NCBI GenBank assembly: GCA_963737655.1
Contig: CAVTTN010000002.1
Location: 1,248,001-1,312,000, forward strand
Length of the DNA: 64,000 nt
Direction of reading: 5' to 3'
DNA from: an uncultured Planctomycetota bacterium
GTDB lineage: Bacteria > Planctomycetota > Planctomycetia > Isosphaerales > Isosphaeraceae
Part shown: in pieces, positions 53,750 through 63,817 of the stretch
How the letters are laid out: each line of letters starts with the position of its first letter
How positions within the stretch are numbered: the first letter of the stretch is position 1
Notes under the pieces: model-generated
Databases searched by the model: none
Told to the model about the DNA's origin: nothing
What the model saw: the letters and a program-made list of their open reading frames with translations, nothing else
Translations under genes and position numbers: made by a program

Positions 53750-54062
53750 GCCGCCCCCCTCGATTCGGGAGGTCTCGGACGCCGGGGAGGAAGCCGGATG
53801 CTCGGCCAATCGCCGTGCCGGTCCTTCTTCATGAGGTCGGCGACGATCGCACGGAGATCGTCGTTGAACGACCGGCCTTGAAGATCGCGCCGCCCGGACT
53901 TCCTTCAAGACGTCATCCGCTCGGGGGCGGAAGCGAATTCAACGGTCGATTGGTGATGGGCCTGCTTGATGGATGAGCAATCCGACCGGACTCGGACCGA
54001 ACGGCGGCGCACGGTACACTGGGGGAAATCGCCGGACATCGTCACGAAGGGCAGTCGCACCG

Positions 54063-54647
54063 ATGGCCACCGTCGAACTGCTTCCGAACGAGGTCGGGCG
54101 CGTCGTCGAATCGTCGTTCCCGACCGAGGATTCGCTCTATGAGATCGTCGATGGCCTGCGGGTGGCGATCGCCCCGATGAGCGCTTATGCGGGCCTGGTC
54201 GCCTCGCGATTGGTCACCGAGCTCAACATCTCCGCCCGACCGGGGCGATTCGGCCAGGCCGCGGTGGAGACGCTTTTCCGCCTCCCCCTCCATGAGGACC
54301 GCTCCAGGAATCGGCGGCCGGATGTTGCCTTCGTGTCGGACGATCGTTGGCCCGTGGGGACGCCCATCCCCCTCCGGGACAACGCCTGGGACGTGGTCCC
54401 CGATCTCGCCGTCGAGGTCGTCAGCCCTCACGACCTGCTTGAGGAGGTCCTGGATCAGGTCGATGAGTACTTCCGGGCCGGGGTCCGGCTCGTGTGGGTC
54501 GTCCTGCCCGTCCATCGCCGGGTTTACGTCTACGAATCCCCTTCGAAACTTCACGTTCGGACCGACGCCGACGCCCTCGACGCGGAGGGCGTGCTCCCCG
54601 GGTTCCGCCTGCCCCTGGCGGGGCTGTTCGACCCTCCTGCCGCGTGA
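54063..54647 (+). CDS. Uma2/DUF820-family endonuclease-fold protein
   Basis: YEIVDG, RRPDVAFV, PDLAVEVVSP, YFRAGVRLVWVV, VLPGFRL. Confidence 0.9.
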   Translation: MATVELLPNEVGRVVESSFPTEDSLYEIVDGLRVAIAPMSAYAGLVASRLVTELNISARPGRFGQAAVETLFRLPLHEDRSRNRRPDVAFVSDDRWPVGTPIPLRDNAWDVVPDLAVEVVSPHDLLEEVLDQVDEYFRAGVRLVWVVLPVHRRVYVYESPSKLHVRTDADALDAEGVLPGFRLPLAGLFDPPAA

Positions 54648-54749: not shown

Positions 54750-56483
54750 ATGGGCATCCCGACGATGATCGAAGCCTTGGGCGAGGACGCCTCGAAGGCC
54801 GTCCAGGCCGCCCTGGACGACTGGCAGGCCGGCAGCAAGGTCAAGAGGCTCTGGGACGGTGACGCTTCGCTCTGGTCGGGCGCCGACGAAGGCCAGTGGC
54901 TCGGCTGGCTCCACGTGATCGACGAGCCCGGCCGCACCGAGATGGTCAAGAACCTGCAGGCGATCGCCCAGGACGTCCATTCGCTCGGCGTGACCGACGC
55001 CCTGGTCATGGGGATGGGCGGGTCGAGCCTCTGCCCCGAAGTGTTGAAGATGACGTTCGGCCACATTCAGGGCTGGCCCAATCTCCACGTCCTGGATTCG
55101 ACCGTGCCGGCCCAGGTCGCCTCGTTCCGCGACTCGCTCGACCTGGCGAAGACGGTTTGCATCGTCTCGTCGAAGTCCGGCAGCACCACCGAGCCGAACG
55201 TCTTCCGCCAGTACTTCCAGGAGCAGGTCGGCGCCGCGATCGGAGCGGAGAAGGCCGGTTCCAGGTTCCTCGCCGTGACCGACCCGGGCACGAAGATGCA
55301 GGCCGTGGCCGAGCAGAACGAGTTCCGCACGATCGCCTTCGGCGTGCCGTCGATCGGCGGGCGGTTCTCGGCCCTGTCGAATTTCGGGATGGTCCCGGCG
55401 GCCGTGATGGGCCTCGACGTGGCGGATTTCCTCCGCCGGGCCGGCGAGATGGTCGTCGCCTGCGGCCCGAACACCTCGGCCGAGTCGAACCCGGGCGTCC
55501 GCCTCGGCGCGATCCTCGGCGTGATGGCCCGCGACTTCCACAAGGACAAGGTCACCCTGATCACCTCGCCTCCGATCGGAGACCTCGGCGCCTGGCTCGA
55601 ACAACTGCTCGCCGAATCGACCGGAAAGCAGGGCAAGGGCGTGGTCCCCGTCGACGGCGAGGCGATCGGGCCGCCTTCGGCGTACGGGAACGACCGCCTG
55701 TTCGTGTACTTGCGGCTCGAAGCCGCGCCCGATGCCTTGCAAGATGAGGCGGTCTCCGCCCTGGAGAATGCCGGCCATCCGGTGGTTCGCGTGCCGATCG
55801 AGGACCCGATGGACCTGGGCGCCGAGTTCTTCCGCTGGGAGTTCGCCACGGCGGTGGCCGGTTCGATCCTGGGGATCAACGCGTTCAATCAGCCGGACGT
55901 CGAGGCGAGCAAGATCAAGACCCGCGAGCTCTCGGCCGAGTACGCGAAGACGGGCAAGGTTCCCGACGAGGTCCCGGTCTCCGAGGGCGGCGGATTCAAG
56001 CTGTTCACCGACGAGAAGAACGCCGACGCCCTCGCCCGGGCCGCCGCCACGCCCGAGCCGGCCGATTACCTCCGGGCCCACCTCGCCCGGTTCGAGGTCG
56101 GCGATTATTTCGCCCTCACGGCCTATGTCCAGATGGACGCCGAGAACAAGGCGATCCTCGAAGAGATCCGCCACCTCGTGAGGGACGGGCGGCGAGTCGC
56201 GACGACGCTCGGGTTCGGGCCGAGGTTCCTGCACTCGACGGGCCAGCTCCACAAGGGGGGGCCGAACTCGGGCGTGTTCCTGCAAATCACCTCGGACGAC
56301 GCCTTCGACCTGGCGATCCCGGGCGAGGTCTACAGCTTCGGCCTGTTGAAGAGGTTCCAGGCGCAGGGGGATTTCGCCGTCCTGGTCGAGAGAAACCGCC
56401 GGGCCCTGCGCGTCCACCTCGGTCCCGACGTGCCGGAAGGGCTGCGGAAGCTCAAGGAGACCATCCGCGAAGCTCTCGGATGA
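54750..56483 (+). CDS. pgi: Glucose-6-phosphate isomerase-like SIS protein (PGI half of the Tal-Pgi type)
   Basis: WLGWL, GMGGSSL, SSKSGSTTEP, IGGRFSALS, EQLLAESTGKQG, NAFNQPDVEASK, GPRFLHSTGQLHKGGP. Confidence 0.85.
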   Translation: MGIPTMIEALGEDASKAVQAALDDWQAGSKVKRLWDGDASLWSGADEGQWLGWLHVIDEPGRTEMVKNLQAIAQDVHSLGVTDALVMGMGGSSLCPEVLKMTFGHIQGWPNLHVLDSTVPAQVASFRDSLDLAKTVCIVSSKSGSTTEPNVFRQYFQEQVGAAIGAEKAGSRFLAVTDPGTKMQAVAEQNEFRTIAFGVPSIGGRFSALSNFGMVPAAVMGLDVADFLRRAGEMVVACGPNTSAESNPGVRLGAILGVMARDFHKDKVTLITSPPIGDLGAWLEQLLAESTGKQGKGVVPVDGEAIGPPSAYGNDRLFVYLRLEAAPDALQDEAVSALENAGHPVVRVPIEDPMDLGAEFFRWEFATAVAGSILGINAFNQPDVEASKIKTRELSAEYAKTGKVPDEVPVSEGGGFKLFTDEKNADALARAAATPEPADYLRAHLARFEVGDYFALTAYVQMDAENKAILEEIRHLVRDGRRVATTLGFGPRFLHSTGQLHKGGPNSGVFLQITSDDAFDLAIPGEVYSFGLLKRFQAQGDFAVLVERNRRALRVHLGPDVPEGLRKLKETIREALG

Positions 56484-57019
56484 ACCGCCAAGACGCCAAG
56501 ATCGCCAAGGGAAGAGGAGAGGAGAACGCGTTTACTTCTGGGGGTTTCGATGAGCCTTTCCGAAAATCCTGCTCTCCGGACCGAGCCGGATGAAGAACTG
56601 GACGCCCTGGCCCATGCGGTCATCGGCGCGGCCATCGAAGTCCATCGGCATCTCGGTCCGGGCTACCTGGAGGGCGTTTACGAGGACGCCCTGGCTGTCG
56701 AATTCGGCCTGCGTGGCATCGTCTTCGAGCGGCAGAAACCGATCGCCGTCGAGTTCAAGGGGGTCCCCGTCGGTGAGGGTCGGCTCGATTTCCTCGTCGA
56801 AGAGCGTCTGATCGCCGAATTGAAGGCCGTCGAGGAACTGGCGCCGATCCACCGCGCCCAGGTCCTCTCCTATCTCCGAACGACCGGGCCGAGCCTCGGC
56901 CTGCTGATCAACTTCAACGTCACAACCCTGAGGAACGGGATCAAGCGAGTGATCCTCTCCTGATCCTCCTCTCCTCTTCTCTCGTCTTTCCTTGGCGCCC
57001 TTGGCGTCTTGGCGGTTCA
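56481..57019. mobile_element. GxxExxY cassette bounded by terminal inverted repeats (putative small mobile element)
   Basis: 56481-56510 TGAACCGCCAAGACGCCAAGATCGCCAAGG versus the reverse complement of 56990-57019: 28/30 identical. Inner gaagaggagaggag / ctcctctcctcttc tracts also match. Confidence 0.65.
56550..56963 (+). CDS. GxxExxY protein (PD-(D/E)XK nuclease fold)
   Basis: AIEVHRHLGPGYLEGVYE, RLDFLVE, ELKA, AQVLSYLR, GLLINF. Confidence 0.93.
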   Translation: MSLSENPALRTEPDEELDALAHAVIGAAIEVHRHLGPGYLEGVYEDALAVEFGLRGIVFERQKPIAVEFKGVPVGEGRLDFLVEERLIAELKAVEELAPIHRAQVLSYLRTTGPSLGLLINFNVTTLRNGIKRVILS

Positions 57020-57039
57020 CCTTTCCCGGACGATCCACG

Positions 57040-59120
<2,081 letters not shown>

Positions 59121-59124
<4 letters not shown>

Positions 59125-59528
59125 ACCCGCTCGGGACGATCCGCTCGAGGCCGGCCGGTCCCCGCCGATCGCGTCGCAAGACGGTCACGATCGGCGGGAT
59201 GCTCCTGATCGTCGCCCTGTCGGCGGCGGGGCTGAGGCTCCTCCGGGCGATCCTCCCTCTGACCGCATCCCAGGCCGCCCGGGTCGCCCGCGAGGAGGTC
59301 TCCCGGCGCGACCCGGCCTTCGCCGCCGACGCCCAGGTCGTCCAGGTCGCCCCCCGAGAGGAGACCGCCGGCAGGCCGTGGAACTGGGCCTACCGCTGGG
59401 AGGTCGTCCTGAGGGGCCGCGACGCCCCGACCGGGTACTTCGTCGAGATCGACGGCCGCGAAAACGTGAAGGTCGGCCTCGCCTACGACATCCGCCCCGG
59501 CCACTGGTCCTACGACGAGCCGCGATGA
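59121..59528 (+). CDS. Hypothetical membrane-anchored protein (~135 aa)
   Basis: ATGA overlap with the tkt stop; basic N-terminus followed by TM TIGGMLLIVALSAAGL; fills the gap before rpiA. Confidence 0.6.
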
Positions 59529-59559
59529 ACCCGAACCCGATCGAGAAACGGCACGACGC

Positions 59560-60231
59560 ATGAGCGCATCTCACCCCGCCCTCCAGTTCGTCGAGCCCGG
59601 CCAGGTGCTCGGGCTCGGCACCGGCCGATCGGCCGCCGCGTTCATCCGGGCCCTGGGCGATCGGGTCAAGGCGGGCCTGGACGTCCGCGGCGTCCCCACG
59701 TCGAAGGCCTCGGCCGAGCTCGCCCGGTCGCTGGGAATCCCCCTGGTTTCGCTCGACGACATCGACTCGATCGACGTCGCCCTCGACGGCGCCGACGAGG
59801 TCGACCCGGCCCTGAACCTCATCAAGGGCCGGGGCGGCGCGCTGGTCCGCGAGAAGATCGTCGCCGCGGCGGCCCGGCAATTCCTCGTGCTGGTGGGCGA
59901 GGAGAAGCTCGTCCCGGTCCTCGGGGCGAAGGGGGCCCTGCCGGTGGAGGTCGTCCCGTTCGCCCTCGGGTTCTGCCGGAGGAAGCTCGACGCCCTGGGC
60001 TGCCGGCCCTCGCCGAGGACCACGCCCGAGGGCGCCCCGTACATCTCCGACAACGGCAACCCGATCCTGGATTGCCACATCCACGAGCTGGCCGACCCCG
60101 CCGCCCTCGAACGGGCGATCCTCGCCCTGCCCGGGGTCGTGGACACCGGATTGTTCCTCGGGATGGCCTCGGCGGTGATCGTCGGCGATGATGAGACATC
60201 GGCGCGGGTCTTGCGGCGCCCGGGGACCTGA
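59560..60231 (+). CDS. rpiA: Ribose-5-phosphate isomerase A
   Basis: GLGTG, DGADEVD, LIKGRGGALVREK, SDNGN, PGVVDTGLF. Confidence 0.96.
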   Translation: MSASHPALQFVEPGQVLGLGTGRSAAAFIRALGDRVKAGLDVRGVPTSKASAELARSLGIPLVSLDDIDSIDVALDGADEVDPALNLIKGRGGALVREKIVAAAARQFLVLVGEEKLVPVLGAKGALPVEVVPFALGFCRRKLDALGCRPSPRTTPEGAPYISDNGNPILDCHIHELADPAALERAILALPGVVDTGLFLGMASAVIVGDDETSARVLRRPGT

Positions 60232-60255
60232 TCTCCCGTCCAGAAGGAGGATGTC

Positions 60256-60906
60256 ATGAGCCTCGGCACGGCCGTCGAAACCCGATCACCGATCGAATCC
60301 CAGGTCGTCCCCCCTCCGCCCGAATCCGGCGATGCGCCGTATGAGCTGACGGCCGACGAATTCCTCGCTCTCGTCGAAACCGGGGCATTCCGCGAGGGTT
60401 CCCGCATCTACCTCCGGGACGGCCGGATCTACGAGAAAATGGCGAAAACCATCCCCCATTCCCTGCTCGGCTCGATGATCGCCACCGCCCTGATCCGACG
60501 CCTCCCGCCGGGTTGGTTCGTGATCCCCGAGGGACAGTTCAAGGTCGATGACAGGAATTCCCGCCTGCCCGACATCGCCGTGGTCCGGGGGGCCCATCCC
60601 TTCGCCCTCCTCGAACCCGGCGCCTTTCCCGAGGCCAAAGACCTCGGCCTGATCGTCGAGATCTCCGTGACGAGCCTCGCGAAAAACCCGGGCCGGAACC
60701 TCGATCGCTATGCCCGGTCCGGTGTGCCGAGCTACTGGGTCATGGACTTCCCCGGCCGCCGCATCCTCGCCCATTCCGGGCCCCGGGCCGTCGAGGACCG
60801 GGGCGAGTATGAGCACGTCGCGGTCGTCGGGCCCGGCCGGATGATCCCCCTCGTCCTGGACGGCGTCGAGTCCGTCCGGTTCGCCTATGAAGAACTGATG
60901 CCCTGA
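60256..60906 (+). CDS. Uma2/DUF820-family protein
   Basis: [42 protein letters not shown] upstream. Confidence 0.85.
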
Positions 60907-60935
60907 TCGGGATCAAAATCTCAGGAGATGCTGTC

Positions 60936-61961
60936 GTGCAACTCGGAATGGTCGGGCTGGGGCGGATGGGCGCGAACATGGCCCGCCGCCTGATGAAGGG
61001 CGGACACCAGTGCGTCGCCTTCGACATGAACCCGCAGAGCGTCCAGGCCCTGGAGGCCCACGGGGCCGTCGGCGCCTCGTCGATGGAGGACTTCGTCCGG
61101 AAGCTCACCAAGCCCCGGGCCGTCTGGCTGATGATCCCGGCCGCGTTCGTCGACTCGACCCTGGAGAAGTTCGCCGCCATCCTCGAGCCCGACGACATCT
61201 TGATCGACGGCGGCAACTCCTACTACATCGACGACATCGCGCGGGCCAGGACCCTGAAGACCAAGGGCCTGCACTACGTCGATGTCGGCACGAGCGGAGG
61301 CGTGTGGGGCCTGGAGCGCGGCTACTGCCAGATGATCGGCGGCGAGGACGCGGTGGTGAAGCACCTCGACCCGATCTTCAAGACCCTCGCCCCCGGGATC
61401 GACGCCAACCCCGCCCGCACCCCCGGCCGCGAAGGCCAGCCCGCGTCCACCGCCGAGCACGGCTATCTCCACTGCGGGCCCAACGGCGCGGGGCACTTCG
61501 TCAAGATGGTGCACAACGGCATCGAATACGGCATCATGGCCGCGTACGCCGAGGGCCTGAACATCCTCAAGCAGGCCGACATCGGCACCCGCGAGCACGC
61601 CAAGGACGCCGAGACCACCCCCCTGCGGAACCCGGAGCACTATCAATACAAGTTCAACCTCGCCGACGTGGCCGAGAACTGGAGGCGAGGCAGCGTGATC
61701 GGTTCCTGGCTCCTGGACCTCACCGCCAGCGCCCTGGCCAAGGACGAGGGGCTCGTCGAGTTCTCCGGCCGCGTGAGCGACTCGGGCGAGGGCCGCTGGA
61801 CCATCCAGGCCGCCATCGACGAGGCCGTGCCGGCCCACGTCCTCACCACCGCGCTGTATGAACGATTCAGCTCCCGAGGCGAGTCGAATTATGCCGACAA
61901 GCTGATGTCGGCCATGCGCAAGGAATTCGGCGGGCACGTCGAGCGCGCTGCGGGCGGTTGA
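60936..61961 (+). CDS. gnd: 6-phosphogluconate dehydrogenase, decarboxylating, short form
   Basis: [48 protein letters not shown] start after AGGAG. Confidence 0.96.
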
Positions 61962-61966
61962 GAGAT

Positions 61967-62150
61967 TGAACCGCCAAGACGCCAAGTTCGCCAAGGGCAG
62001 AGGAGAGGAGTAGAGCGGGAAGAAATGAGAAACACAGATTAGATCGGATGAGAATTTAACTCGATTTGCAAATCCGCTGATTTGCGCGCTGAATTCTTAC
62101 TCTTCTCCTCCTCTCCTCTCCCCTTGGCGGACCTGGCGCCCCGGCGGTGA
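61967..62150. repeat. Gene-less copy of the GxxExxY-flanking inverted-repeat element (MITE-like)
   Basis: 61967-62010 matches 56481-56524 at 42/44 bases. The right arm (62108-62148) is its imperfect reverse complement (35/41). The interior is ~95 bp and AT-rich. Confidence 0.8.
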
Positions 62151-62185
62151 GTCCGATTCCCCATCCACCAGTCGGAGCCCAGAGA

Positions 62186-63817
62186 ATGGCGACAGCCGAG
62201 ATCACGAACCCGCTGACGGCCGGGACGCCCCGGACCTTGCTGCCCCAGCCGTGCGTCCTGGTGATCTTCGGCGCGGCCGGGGACCTCTCCTGGCGGAAGC
62301 TCCTCCCGGCCGTCTACAACCTGAACGTCGATGGCGTCCTGCCGTCGAACTTCGCCGTCGTCGGCTTCGGGATGAAGCCCGACGGGCCGATCGAGGGCGA
62401 CCCGGACCAGTACATCCGCGACCGCGCCCGGGACGGCATCGAGCACAACTCCCGCCAGCCCCTGGACGAGTCCCACTGGAACGACTTCGCCCGCGCCCTG
62501 TTCTTCGTCGAAGGCTCGTTCAGCGACCTCCGCGCCTACGAGCAGCTCAAGGCGAAGCTCGACGCCGTGGACCAGCAGTTCGGCATCCCCGGCAGCCGGG
62601 TCTTCTACCTCTCGATCCCCCCGGGCCTCGTCAACGTCTGCGTCGAGCGGCTCAAGGCCGCCGGCCTCGTCGCCGACCCCCAGGACAAGCGCAAGTTCAC
62701 CCGGGTGATCGTCGAGAAGCCGATCGGCCGCGACCTGGAGAGCGCCCGGGCCGTCGTCAACGGCGTGGGCCAGGCGTTCTCCGAGGACCAGACCTACCGG
62801 ATCGACCATTATCTCGGCAAGGAGACCGTCCAGAACTTGCTGGTCCTCCGGTTCGCCAACAGCATCTTCGAGCCGCTCTGGAACGGCAAGTACATCGACC
62901 ACGTGCAGATCACCGTGGCCGAGGAAGAAGGCGTCTCGCACTTCGACGACGACGGCCGGATGACCGCCAGCCGGATCGGCTATTACGAGGGCGTGGGCGC
63001 CCTCCGCGACATGGTCCAGAACCACATGCTCCAGGTCCTCTGCCTGACCGCGATGGAGCCGCCCTACTCGCTCGACCCCGACGTCGTCCGCGACGCCAAG
63101 GCCGGCGTCCTCCACTGCCTGAGGCCCATGACCGACGCCGACGTCCAGGCCAGCGTCGTCCGGGCCCAGTACATCGACGGCGACGAGATGGGCGTGGCCG
63201 TCCCGGGCTATCGCACCGAGGTCCGGAGATATTACGAGGAGTTGCTCAGGAAGCCCGTCCCGCCCGAGGCCGTGAACTCCACGACCGAGACGTTCGTCGC
63301 CATGCGCCTGTTCGTCGACAACTGGCGATGGGCGGGCGTCCCGTTCTACCTCCGCACCGGCAAGCGCCTGCCGAAGCGCGCGAGCGAGGTCGCCATCCAG
63401 TTCAAGGACGTGCCGAACGTCCTGTTCAACGCCCATCCGGACGTCCCCCTGGAGCCGACGGTGCTCTCCCTGAGGGTCCAGCCCGAGGAGGGCCTGTCGA
63501 TGAGGATCGCCTCCAAGCTCCCCGGGCCGAAGGTGCGGATCTACCCCGTCAAGATGGAGTTCAACTACTCCGAGAGCTTCGGCGGGACCACCCCGGAAGC
63601 ATATGAACGATTGATCCTCGACGTGATGGCCGGGGATGCCACCTTGTTCATGCGTCGAGACGCCGTGGAGGCGGCCTGGCAGTTCGTCATGCCGATCCTC
63701 GACCACTGGCAGAGGAGCCACTCGCGCTACCTGCCCGAGTACCGGGCCGGGACGTGGGGGCCCCTGGAAGCCGATCGCCTGATCGAGTCCGACGGCCGAA
63801 GCTGGAGGACCCTATGA
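62186..63817 (+). CDS. zwf: Glucose-6-phosphate 1-dehydrogenase
   Basis: IFGAAGDL, EKPIG, YRIDHYLGKE, RDMVQNH, WAGVPFYLRTGK, EAYERL. Confidence 0.97.
   Translation: MATAEITNPLTAGTPRTLLPQPCVLVIFGAAGDLSWRKLLPAVYNLNVDGVLPSNFAVVGFGMKPDGPIEGDPDQYIRDRARDGIEHNSRQPLDESHWNDFARALFFVEGSFSDLRAYEQLKAKLDAVDQQFGIPGSRVFYLSIPPGLVNVCVERLKAAGLVADPQDKRKFTRVIVEKPIGRDLESARAVVNGVGQAFSEDQTYRIDHYLGKETVQNLLVLRFANSIFEPLWNGKYIDHVQITVAEEEGVSHFDDDGRMTASRIGYYEGVGALRDMVQNHMLQVLCLTAMEPPYSLDPDVVRDAKAGVLHCLRPMTDADVQASVVRAQYIDGDEMGVAVPGYRTEVRRYYEELLRKPVPPEAVNSTTETFVAMRLFVDNWRWAGVPFYLRTGKRLPKRASEVAIQFKDVPNVLFNAHPDVPLEPTVLSLRVQPEEGLSMRIASKLPGPKVRIYPVKMEFNYSESFGGTTPEAYERLILDVMAGDATLFMRRDAVEAAWQFVMPILDHWQRSHSRYLPEYRAGTWGPLEADRLIESDGRSWRTL

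Follow-up and report, generated by a model that had tools for sequence, protein, structure and literature searches.

The GxxExxY unit at the pgi-tkt junction

The window, a stretch of 64,000 nucleotides from an uncultured planctomycete of the Isosphaeraceae (contig CAVTTN010000002.1, positions 1,248,001 to 1,312,000), contains a 539-bp unit in which a gene of the GxxExxY family is enclosed by inverted repeat arms and placed between two host genes. The upstream host gene pgi, encoding glucose-6-phosphate isomerase (54750..56483, + strand), ends in a TGA that lies within the left arm and overlaps its start. This arm (56481..56525, + strand) is composed of TGAAC, three CGCCAAG units with spacers A and AT, and a purine tract. 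The GxxExxY gene (56550..56963, + strand) encodes a protein of 137 amino acids with a predicted PD-(D/E)XK fold and is followed by the right arm (56975..57019, - strand), an inverted copy in which the three CGCCAAG units have spacers A and GG and the tract reads as pyrimidines on the + strand. The ATG of the downstream host gene tkt, encoding transketolase (57040..59124, + strand), is at 57040, 20 bp past the right arm.

The 45-nt arms exhibited 89% complementarity and form the longest inverted repeat between 55500 and 58000, with matches at 28/30 positions of the outer 30 nt and with the units of each arm spaced 8 and 9 nt apart. Re-analysis bore out the earlier note in its description of the unit, namely its length of 539 bp, the 28/30 arms, the three CGCCAAG units and the GxxExxY gene as the sole gene inside. 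The arms pair in the predicted RNA fold of the unit (z -4.8; 0/100 shuffles equally stable). The unit is located at an mRNA gene junction and not in an rRNA gene, and an Rfam scan of 56000-62500 yielded no match at the gathering score.

The window protein was matched by TIGR04256 (GxxExxY) at E 2e-40 and 137.7 bits (curated cut-off 35) and by PF13366 (PDDEXK_3) at 137.3 bits (curated cut-off 22). The gene matched these two entries only, with no match to an HUH/Y1 tyrosine transposase or to a transposase of a known family. The predicted model had a mean local confidence (pLDDT) of 92; its nearest folds were lambda exonuclease, RecE and Cas4, and the top rows of both fold searches were PD-(D/E)XK proteins. 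The matches of the VIA fold search were modest (best Z 8.0; root mean square deviation 2.7-4.3 over 92-101 residues), and the matched region is the core, residues about 30-137, with helix 1 mostly outside it. The residues E41, D80, E90, K92, Q104 and Y108 are all present in the window protein, and the first four are conserved in 256, 256, 253 and 254 of 257 homologues, respectively. Internal stops were found in 5/257 homologues, and the ratio of nonsynonymous to synonymous polymorphism (pN/pS) was 0.24 across 29 Nostoc alleles. The predicted fold is thus that of a PD-(D/E)XK protein, the acidic and lysine catalytic residues are intact, and the protein is a putative nuclease. A sequence search of solved structures with the window protein returned nothing significant, the ESM Atlas returned GxxExxY clusters only, PADLOC gave only a weak Cas4b match (E 0.0015), and a search of viral contigs for GxxExxY found just 2 distant loci. 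The family was present in 48/111 genomes of one phylum sample and 25/111 of another. The part of the literature available to us lists PF13366 as of unknown function and with many transfers (PMC3424549).

Arm families, GxxExxY genes and a residue-base correspondence

A fuzzy search of the source genome for the arms yielded 41 inverted pairs and 11 unpaired calls. Forty of the 41 pairs lack a GxxExxY gene and span 118-412 bp. One of the calls scored as unpaired, at window position 61969, has a degenerate partner and represents a gene-less doublet of the CGCCAAG arm family (61969..62148, strand unspecified), situated between gnd and zwf in the same gene cluster, 5 kb downstream of the GxxExxY unit; its left arm is intact, its right arm degenerate and its interior AT-rich. 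According to a crude gene caller made for the analysis, 40/41 pairs are intergenic. By the same caller, convergent genes flank 15/41 pairs against 13% of background gaps, divergent genes flank 5/41 against 26%, and at least one gene 3' end adjoins 36/41 pairs, mostly within tens of bases.

Variable bases were shared by the two arms of a doublet far more often than by arms of different loci (position 10, 0.95 vs 0.53; position 18, 0.78 vs 0.36), indicating that arm-to-arm copying is real. The outer boundary of the pairs is fuzzy, their symmetry fading by about 9 nt outside AACC, and the best identity between doublets was 60-84%. The 40 gene-less doublets contained no gene remnants, just matches to the purine and pyrimidine tracts, and no outer terminal repeat was found. 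The earlier note saw no obvious target duplication at the window unit, and none was detected here: for k 3-9, at any offset tested, the 41 pairs showed no excess over mismatched pairs. A doublet of a second family, CGCAGAT, is nested inside 11/41 pairs.

The source genome has three GxxExxY genes, each with inverted arms built from a different unit of the form CRC-N-R-A-N: CGCCAAG, CACGAAG and a degenerate CGCAGAT type. CGCCAAG, CACGAAG and CGCAGAT are also the commonest triplet families forming inverted pairs in this genome (91, 26 and 33 triplets, respectively), and there is one gene copy per arm type. The CGCCAAG doublet motif had 76 matches in the source genome and 0-4 in each of 40 relatives.

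Repeats of other kinds were also encountered. The 7 PF01797 loci of this genome, which belong to the REP-associated tyrosine transposases (RAYTs; REP, repetitive extragenic palindromic sequence), were considered as partners of the arms and rejected, as they lie elsewhere and, read by eye, are flanked by other repeats. Inside two doublets (G000:C2 2355747-2356158 and 7025286-7025609) lies a GTAG-type palindrome, which occurs in the flanks of a RAYT-family gene of the genome (L010) as well, so that repeats of different systems nest in one another. Both four-helix-bundle (PF05635) genes of the genome, L286 (G000:C2:5657557) and L287 (G000:C2:1242303), lie between long inverted arrays of heptamers, (GTTGTCA)n and (GGGCAGT)n, which makes a similar pairing of cargo and repeat with a different repeat class. 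Two genes for putative endonucleases of the Uma2 family (PF05685) are present at 53973-54647 and 60256-60906, within the same pentose-phosphate gene cluster as the GxxExxY unit.

Among all loci gathered, inverted flanks scoring at least 15 were found for 179/252 GxxExxY genes with full flanks, compared with 1/120 ordinary small genes of the source genome. Most of the sampled GxxExxY genes lie between inverted arms made up of CRC-N-R-A-N units, and the consensus units of the left and right arms agree in 157/193 cassettes. Of 80 metagenome loci with a CGCCAAG triplet, 47 have a partner arm. Ten of the pairs exceed 250 bp, and inside 5 of them is a GxxExxY gene or a remnant of one, each with 61-70% identity to the window protein. 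Across the 80 loci, CGCCAAG arms gave no convincing case of enclosing any other type of gene; one case, L200, is doubtful. At least 4 arms per Mb were found in 39/47 gene-bearing and 10/63 gene-lacking genomes of a phylum sample that includes non-independent kin. A median of 22 vs 0 in a split of 49 genomes was given little weight, the split being partly post hoc with three genomes reassigned. Five genomes have many CGCCAAG arms and a first gene with other arms; a second, CGCCAAG-armed gene was found in 3 of these and in 2 none. The repeat that the earlier note proposed to search for is genome-wide and mostly gene-less, which goes halfway to the first refuting observation named in that note, yet it is tied to GxxExxY genes rather than independent of them. 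A reversed-pattern control for arm counts was left unused because it can match tandem arrays themselves, and a same-strand upstream frame in 75/114 cassettes, for which there is no control, was not used as evidence. As separate observations, the genome G300 (L524-L529), in which no GxxExxY gene was found, carries CGCCAAG arms in head-to-tail arrays of 70-130-bp units, and a long-branch GxxExxY clade (L281, L282, L284, L285) has no callable arms.

In a training set of 140 cassettes, 107 of them labelled, the residue three before the V of VIGAAIEVH best predicted base 5 of the arm unit and the residue six before that V best predicted base 4. The former is Ala21 in the window protein (codon 56610..56612, + strand) and lies in helix 1 (residues 15-35). 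Both rules were fixed before testing on 117 new genes from two phylum samples, of which 86 had arms callable on both sides and 31 did not; two genes from an already-used genome were excluded from the test set. Labelled test proteins were 45-76% identical to the nearest training protein, and the test scored the right arm alone, some 350 bp from the helix-1 codons. On this arm Thr occurred with G in 46/48 held-out cases and Ala or Val with A in 11/11 (p 3e-10).

The number of changes was counted on a FastTree phylogeny of the columns after the helix segment (185 rows, 8 near-duplicates removed; 133 rows with Thr, Ala or Val). Over the 133 rows the residue changed 17 times (shuffled mean 38), base 5 20 times and their joint state 20 times, compared with 36 joint changes for base 2 on the same tree. 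Held-out accuracy was 0.84 for the Ala21 column vs 0.48-0.65 for 11 columns nearer the left arm. The signal was independent of the codon third position and confined to one or two columns. The absence of a rise toward the left arm and of third-base dependence argues against mere linkage. Among the cassettes compared, base 5 of the arm unit tracks one helix-1 residue, Ala or Val going with A and Thr with G. Two further patterns were noted. Where the residue at -3 is Ser, the residue at -2 separates the cases, Y/N/R/H being mostly with A and G/S/acidic residues mostly with G; and base 7 of the unit (G vs T/A), with 5 changes, goes with the deepest division in the protein tree, which is marked by a C-terminal one-residue indel.

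Cyanobacterial loci and the history of the cassette

At one Nostoc locus the alleles have arms of type CGCAGAG, CGCCAAG or CGCAAAG; the alternative there is an unrelated insert of 1.7 kb that contains a frame of 510 codons. Between the alleles L309 and L307 there are 13 base differences within 7 codons of helix 1 and 5 across the remaining 111 codons, and the two arms change type together with the helix. Arm counts were compared between alleles in 45 of the 91 Nostoc genomes searched, chosen as those in which the allele was read; the comparison concerns the GxxExxY gene at this locus. CGCCAAG arms had a median of 55 (23-165) in the 5 genomes with that allele, against medians of 3-8 for the three remaining groups, which comprise 40 genomes (range 0-23; p 2e-4). 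CGCAGAG arms had a median of 28 in the 23 genomes with that allele vs 10-15 (p 3e-7). In the 12 genomes without a gene at the locus, the median was the lowest or close to the lowest for each of the three arm types (3, 11 and 5.5). The five CGCCAAG alleles are scattered on the trees of both flanks (5-6 changes), and a single clade was rejected. The arm type on the resident gene predicts the arm type that is abundant in that genome. In a comparison of the Nostoc genome G091 with five relatives, covering 4 of 10 fetched regions, 9 of 11 CGCCAAG sites were informative; a different arm type occupied the same position in relatives at 3/9 sites, and the outer end alone was kept at 1/9. In most alleles of the Nostoc locus (L303-L332) an ATG stands just before the left arm, which could encode the first residues of the protein.

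At one Microcoleus locus, with L349-L362 covered in part, complete cassettes occur alongside collapsed scars and alongside doublets that lack the gene but retain remnants of its ends, so gene-less doublets can arise from a cassette by internal deletion. Where cyanobacterial homologues occupy different loci, the arms are often the limit of the DNA that they share. Separately, the related cyanobacterial cassettes L085, L090 and L096 share an upstream or a downstream flank, never both, which points to rearrangement breakpoints at cassette ends. The genome G024 carries four GxxExxY cassettes (L017, L038, L271, L279), 88-95% identical and at different sites, two with internal stops; outside the arms they have in common an outer pair of short terminal repeats, as though another element had multiplied them as its cargo.

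Of 19 other tkt loci, 2 have pgi upstream (G001 and G008). The earlier note had proposed a search of such junctions for empty sites, and the GxxExxY gene was indeed absent from both, yet the junction was filled with other content or a short hairpin. In G001, of the same genus (L042), it is taken up by another small gene, putatively DUF559-like, with hairpins of the CCCCTCTCCC type, and in G008 by a short hairpin only. This suggests that small nuclease cassettes recurrently occupy the pgi-tkt junction. A clean empty site of the cassette was found neither at pgi-tkt (G001, G008) nor at the Nostoc or Microcoleus locus, the Microcoleus alternatives being deletion scars or unrelated content. The other two cassettes of the source genome occupy the same junctions in family-level relatives, showing that cassettes can persist for long periods. 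Judged from the junctions compared, cassettes are gained and lost at gene junctions. The minimal non-IS mobile cassette of the earlier note (IS, insertion sequence) is retained in so far as the unit is non-IS and tied to GxxExxY, which is supported by the absence of the gene from both relatives and by the frequent end of shared cyanobacterial DNA at the arms; as to self-mobility, neither a target duplication nor a clean empty site was found.

Proposed mechanism, alternatives and known systems

Recognition of the arms by the GxxExxY protein is the best-supported step of the mechanism proposed here, and the comparisons above make it very probable that the protein binds them. Recognition of the CGCCAAG arms would likely occur through the first helix. 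The protein would then cut DNA at or beside an arm, and host repair would copy the arm into intergenic sites, new ones as well as old. Movement of the cassette as a whole would be a rare event, brought about by that recombination and by horizontal transfer, and a cassette at a gene junction would be tolerated. In cyanobacteria some of the arm dispersal is hitch-hiking inside other inserts with terminal repeats of their own. Cutting and copying by repair are suggested by the conservation of the active site, by counts that depend on the allele and by the swaps of arms in place, and the substrate is presumably DNA rather than RNA. For the whole chain of arm recognition, DNA cutting and copying by repair, we judge the chances to be slightly better than even.

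A number of observations weigh against this mechanism. The evidence for binding, cutting and movement is comparative throughout. Repair of a break copies from the uncut molecule, so cutting of cognate arms would tend to erase them; to account for the direction, the protein may bind a cognate donor and cut the recipient, or may release an arm-bearing strand. Support from the fold is modest, the best Foldseek match having a probability of about 1.0 and E 4e-3, with no match at E 0.001. No two doublets of the source genome are more than 84% identical, which indicates no recent burst of whole-element copying. The CACGGAG family (4 pairs) has no matching gene in this genome, and the arms of the third GxxExxY gene (L003) resemble the CGCAGAT family only loosely. 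Four of five arm-rich, gene-lacking genomes that were checked (G300, G318, G303 and G260) still had no gene at a looser threshold, G300 having 263 matches at 92% completeness; G072 and G087 have 26 and 34 CGCCAAG arms and a sole detected gene with other arms; and five CGCCAAG-armed genes reside in genomes with just 0-2 matches. As to the residue-base correspondence, Ser at the key position split 11:11 in the held-out set, and the second rule (Asp at -6 with C at base 4) fell from 25/36 in training to 2/18 on held-out genes and failed. Only 4 independent pairs were available on well-supported branches (4/4 concordant, p 0.125). Judged by helix periodicity, Ala21 is close to the packed side of the helix (L17, V24, A28) and may be partly buried, in which case it could act on base 5 indirectly. 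In Nostoc the CGCRAAG comparison was weak (24 vs 5.5-20, p 0.054). At 5/9 informative G091 sites, the arm was absent in relatives together with a surrounding 110-170-bp insert, and several of these inserts have terminal repeats of their own and could be moved by other transposases.

The last of these points also supports a rival that we regard as fairly unlikely, in which the protein recognises the arms without moving them, the arms spread in MITEs (miniature inverted-repeat transposable elements) and by host gene conversion, and a matching allele is selected afterwards. The protein might then bind, protect or process an abundant repeat, or form an addiction-like pair with it. The Nostoc inserts show clean empty sites, one with a TTA duplication, and the G091 sites as a whole indicate that arms undergo replacement in place and also travel in other small elements. 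The arm-rich genomes with no gene found, the long residence of 2/3 source-genome cassettes at junctions shared with family-level relatives, and the argument, in the portion of the source at hand, that RAYTs are host-coopted (PMC5581495) point the same way. Against it, the counts follow the allele in five separate Nostoc lineages and are lowest or near-lowest for every arm type in the 12 genomes without the gene at the locus. MITE transposition alone would also leave the in-place swaps of arm type unexplained, and the source-genome doublets lack an outer terminal repeat or duplication. The idea that the arms act as RNA, pairing in the operon transcript so as to loop out or mark the gene, with the protein binding or cutting the stem, is improbable. 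The predicted pairing (z -4.8), the gene 3' ends bordering 36/41 pairs, the agreement of left and right units in 157/193 cassettes and the four-helix-bundle genes likewise bracketed by inverted repeat arrays would all suit it. However, the looping-out of the gene proposed in the earlier note found no echo in the mismatches, since those of G-U type on the sense strand were not in excess over those of A-C type (179 vs 162, p 0.39), although mismatches could be close to neutral. Nostoc has many single arms without a partner, DNA exonucleases are the closest folds, and a stem alone does not account for genome-wide counts or in-place swaps.

It is highly improbable that the gene is a passenger between ordinary REP-like repeats, its residue-base match reflecting linkage of the left arm to helix 1 with the right arm copied from the left. 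Arm-to-arm copying is real, as the sharing at positions 10 and 18 indicates, the Nostoc swaps put the left arm and the helix codons on one tract, and the G024 cassette was apparently multiplied inside the terminal repeats of another element. Yet the rule holds between proteins 45-76% identical, the signal occupies one or two columns without fading with distance from the arm and without dependence on the codon third base, the catalytic residues are nearly invariant, and the 80 CGCCAAG loci hold no other gene type convincingly enclosed, the doubtful L200 apart. There is very little likelihood of a classical cut-and-paste element with a novel transposase gene, in which the arms are terminal repeats and the doublets MITEs. 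The arms are terminal and inverted, Microcoleus has deletion derivatives with gene-end remnants, and homology between cassettes at different loci stops at the arms; this is offset by the absence of target duplication at any offset (k 3-9), the fuzzy outer boundary, fading by about 9 nt outside AACC, doublets that are at best 60-84% identical and without gene remnants in the source genome, and the single gene copy per arm type.

A bolder reading would make GxxExxY proteins the enzymes of a widespread and undescribed class of selfish repeat system: a PD-(D/E)XK nuclease of 130 residues would read arms of tandem 7-mers by means of an exchangeable N-terminal helix and would convert intergenic repeats throughout the chromosome to its own type. 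We put this forward tentatively and incline against it. If true, one recombination swapping helix and arms at the gene would reprogramme dozens to hundreds of sites. If the protein does spread the arms, the abundant intergenic hairpins of planctomycetes, cyanobacteria, chloroflexi and others would be accounted for, and a nuclease of very small size would be on offer, its recognition helix being readable in part. GxxExxY is a common family without an assigned function; each of its proteins now has a candidate substrate and a single-residue swap predicted to change specificity, which makes the function directly testable. Among the matches listed in a literature search, no paper linked GxxExxY or PF13366 to repeats or gave a residue-base rule. 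The cyanobacterial arms may already be catalogued as repeats by Elhai et al. 2008, whose subject is reportedly small cyanobacterial repeats.

The closest known counterpart is the REPtron, the combination of a RAYT (TnpA-REP) with REP or REPIN sequences, as far as it is described in the available parts of the reports (PMC3116915, PMC5581495, PMC8266576, PMC3733652). In both, a single-copy nuclease gene is flanked by cognate repeats, a genome holds several such genes with a repeat flavour for each, protein and repeat co-evolve, and gene-less inverted doublets are dispersed in intergenic space. According to the same texts, a RAYT is an HUH/Y1 tyrosine transposase, whereas GxxExxY is a PD-(D/E)XK protein, and a REP is a GTAG- or CGTC-tagged palindrome, whereas the arm is a tandem, non-palindromic 7-mer triplet with a purine tract. 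The CGCCAAG arm pairs with its partner arm only. GxxExxY doublets also differ in having unique interiors, and in-place replacement of the arm type was seen. The TIRtron, in the part of its description accessible to us (PMC3733652), likewise places one gene (TIRYT) between long inverted arms that belong to a repeat family; TIRYTs are, however, tyrosine transposases, and the GxxExxY cargo has another fold and active site. MITEs and their parent insertion sequences, as outlined in the sections of the literature available (PMC3184786, PMC3542288), resemble the present system in the gene-less derivatives of a gene-bearing unit bounded by inverted repeats; an origin by internal deletion was seen at one Microcoleus locus, whereas the 40 source-genome doublets hold no gene remnants. 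In contrast, the arms show no target duplication, fuzzy ends, low identity between copies and no known-family transposase inside; membership of the IS/MITE class fails on duplication and sharp ends.

Intervening sequences of 23S rRNA can bear an open reading frame, with PF05635 as cargo, and in them too a small frame is found inside a long stem within a transcribed unit; the present unit differs in its mRNA junction, nuclease-fold cargo, genome-wide arms and the absence of an RNA-specific pairing signal from the mismatches compared. Cas4, lambda exonuclease and RecE share the core fold and the E-D-ExK-QxxxY residues, whereas GxxExxY is much smaller, its helix 1 lies mostly outside the matched core and no CRISPR context is present here. 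The unit works like a REPtron but differs in enzyme and in repeat structure. If the protein spreads the arms, the REP/RAYT way of life would have been reached by a second and unrelated class of enzyme. From the sequence comparisons made, the system is best read as a REP/RAYT-like partnership of nuclease and repeat built on a PD-(D/E)XK enzyme.

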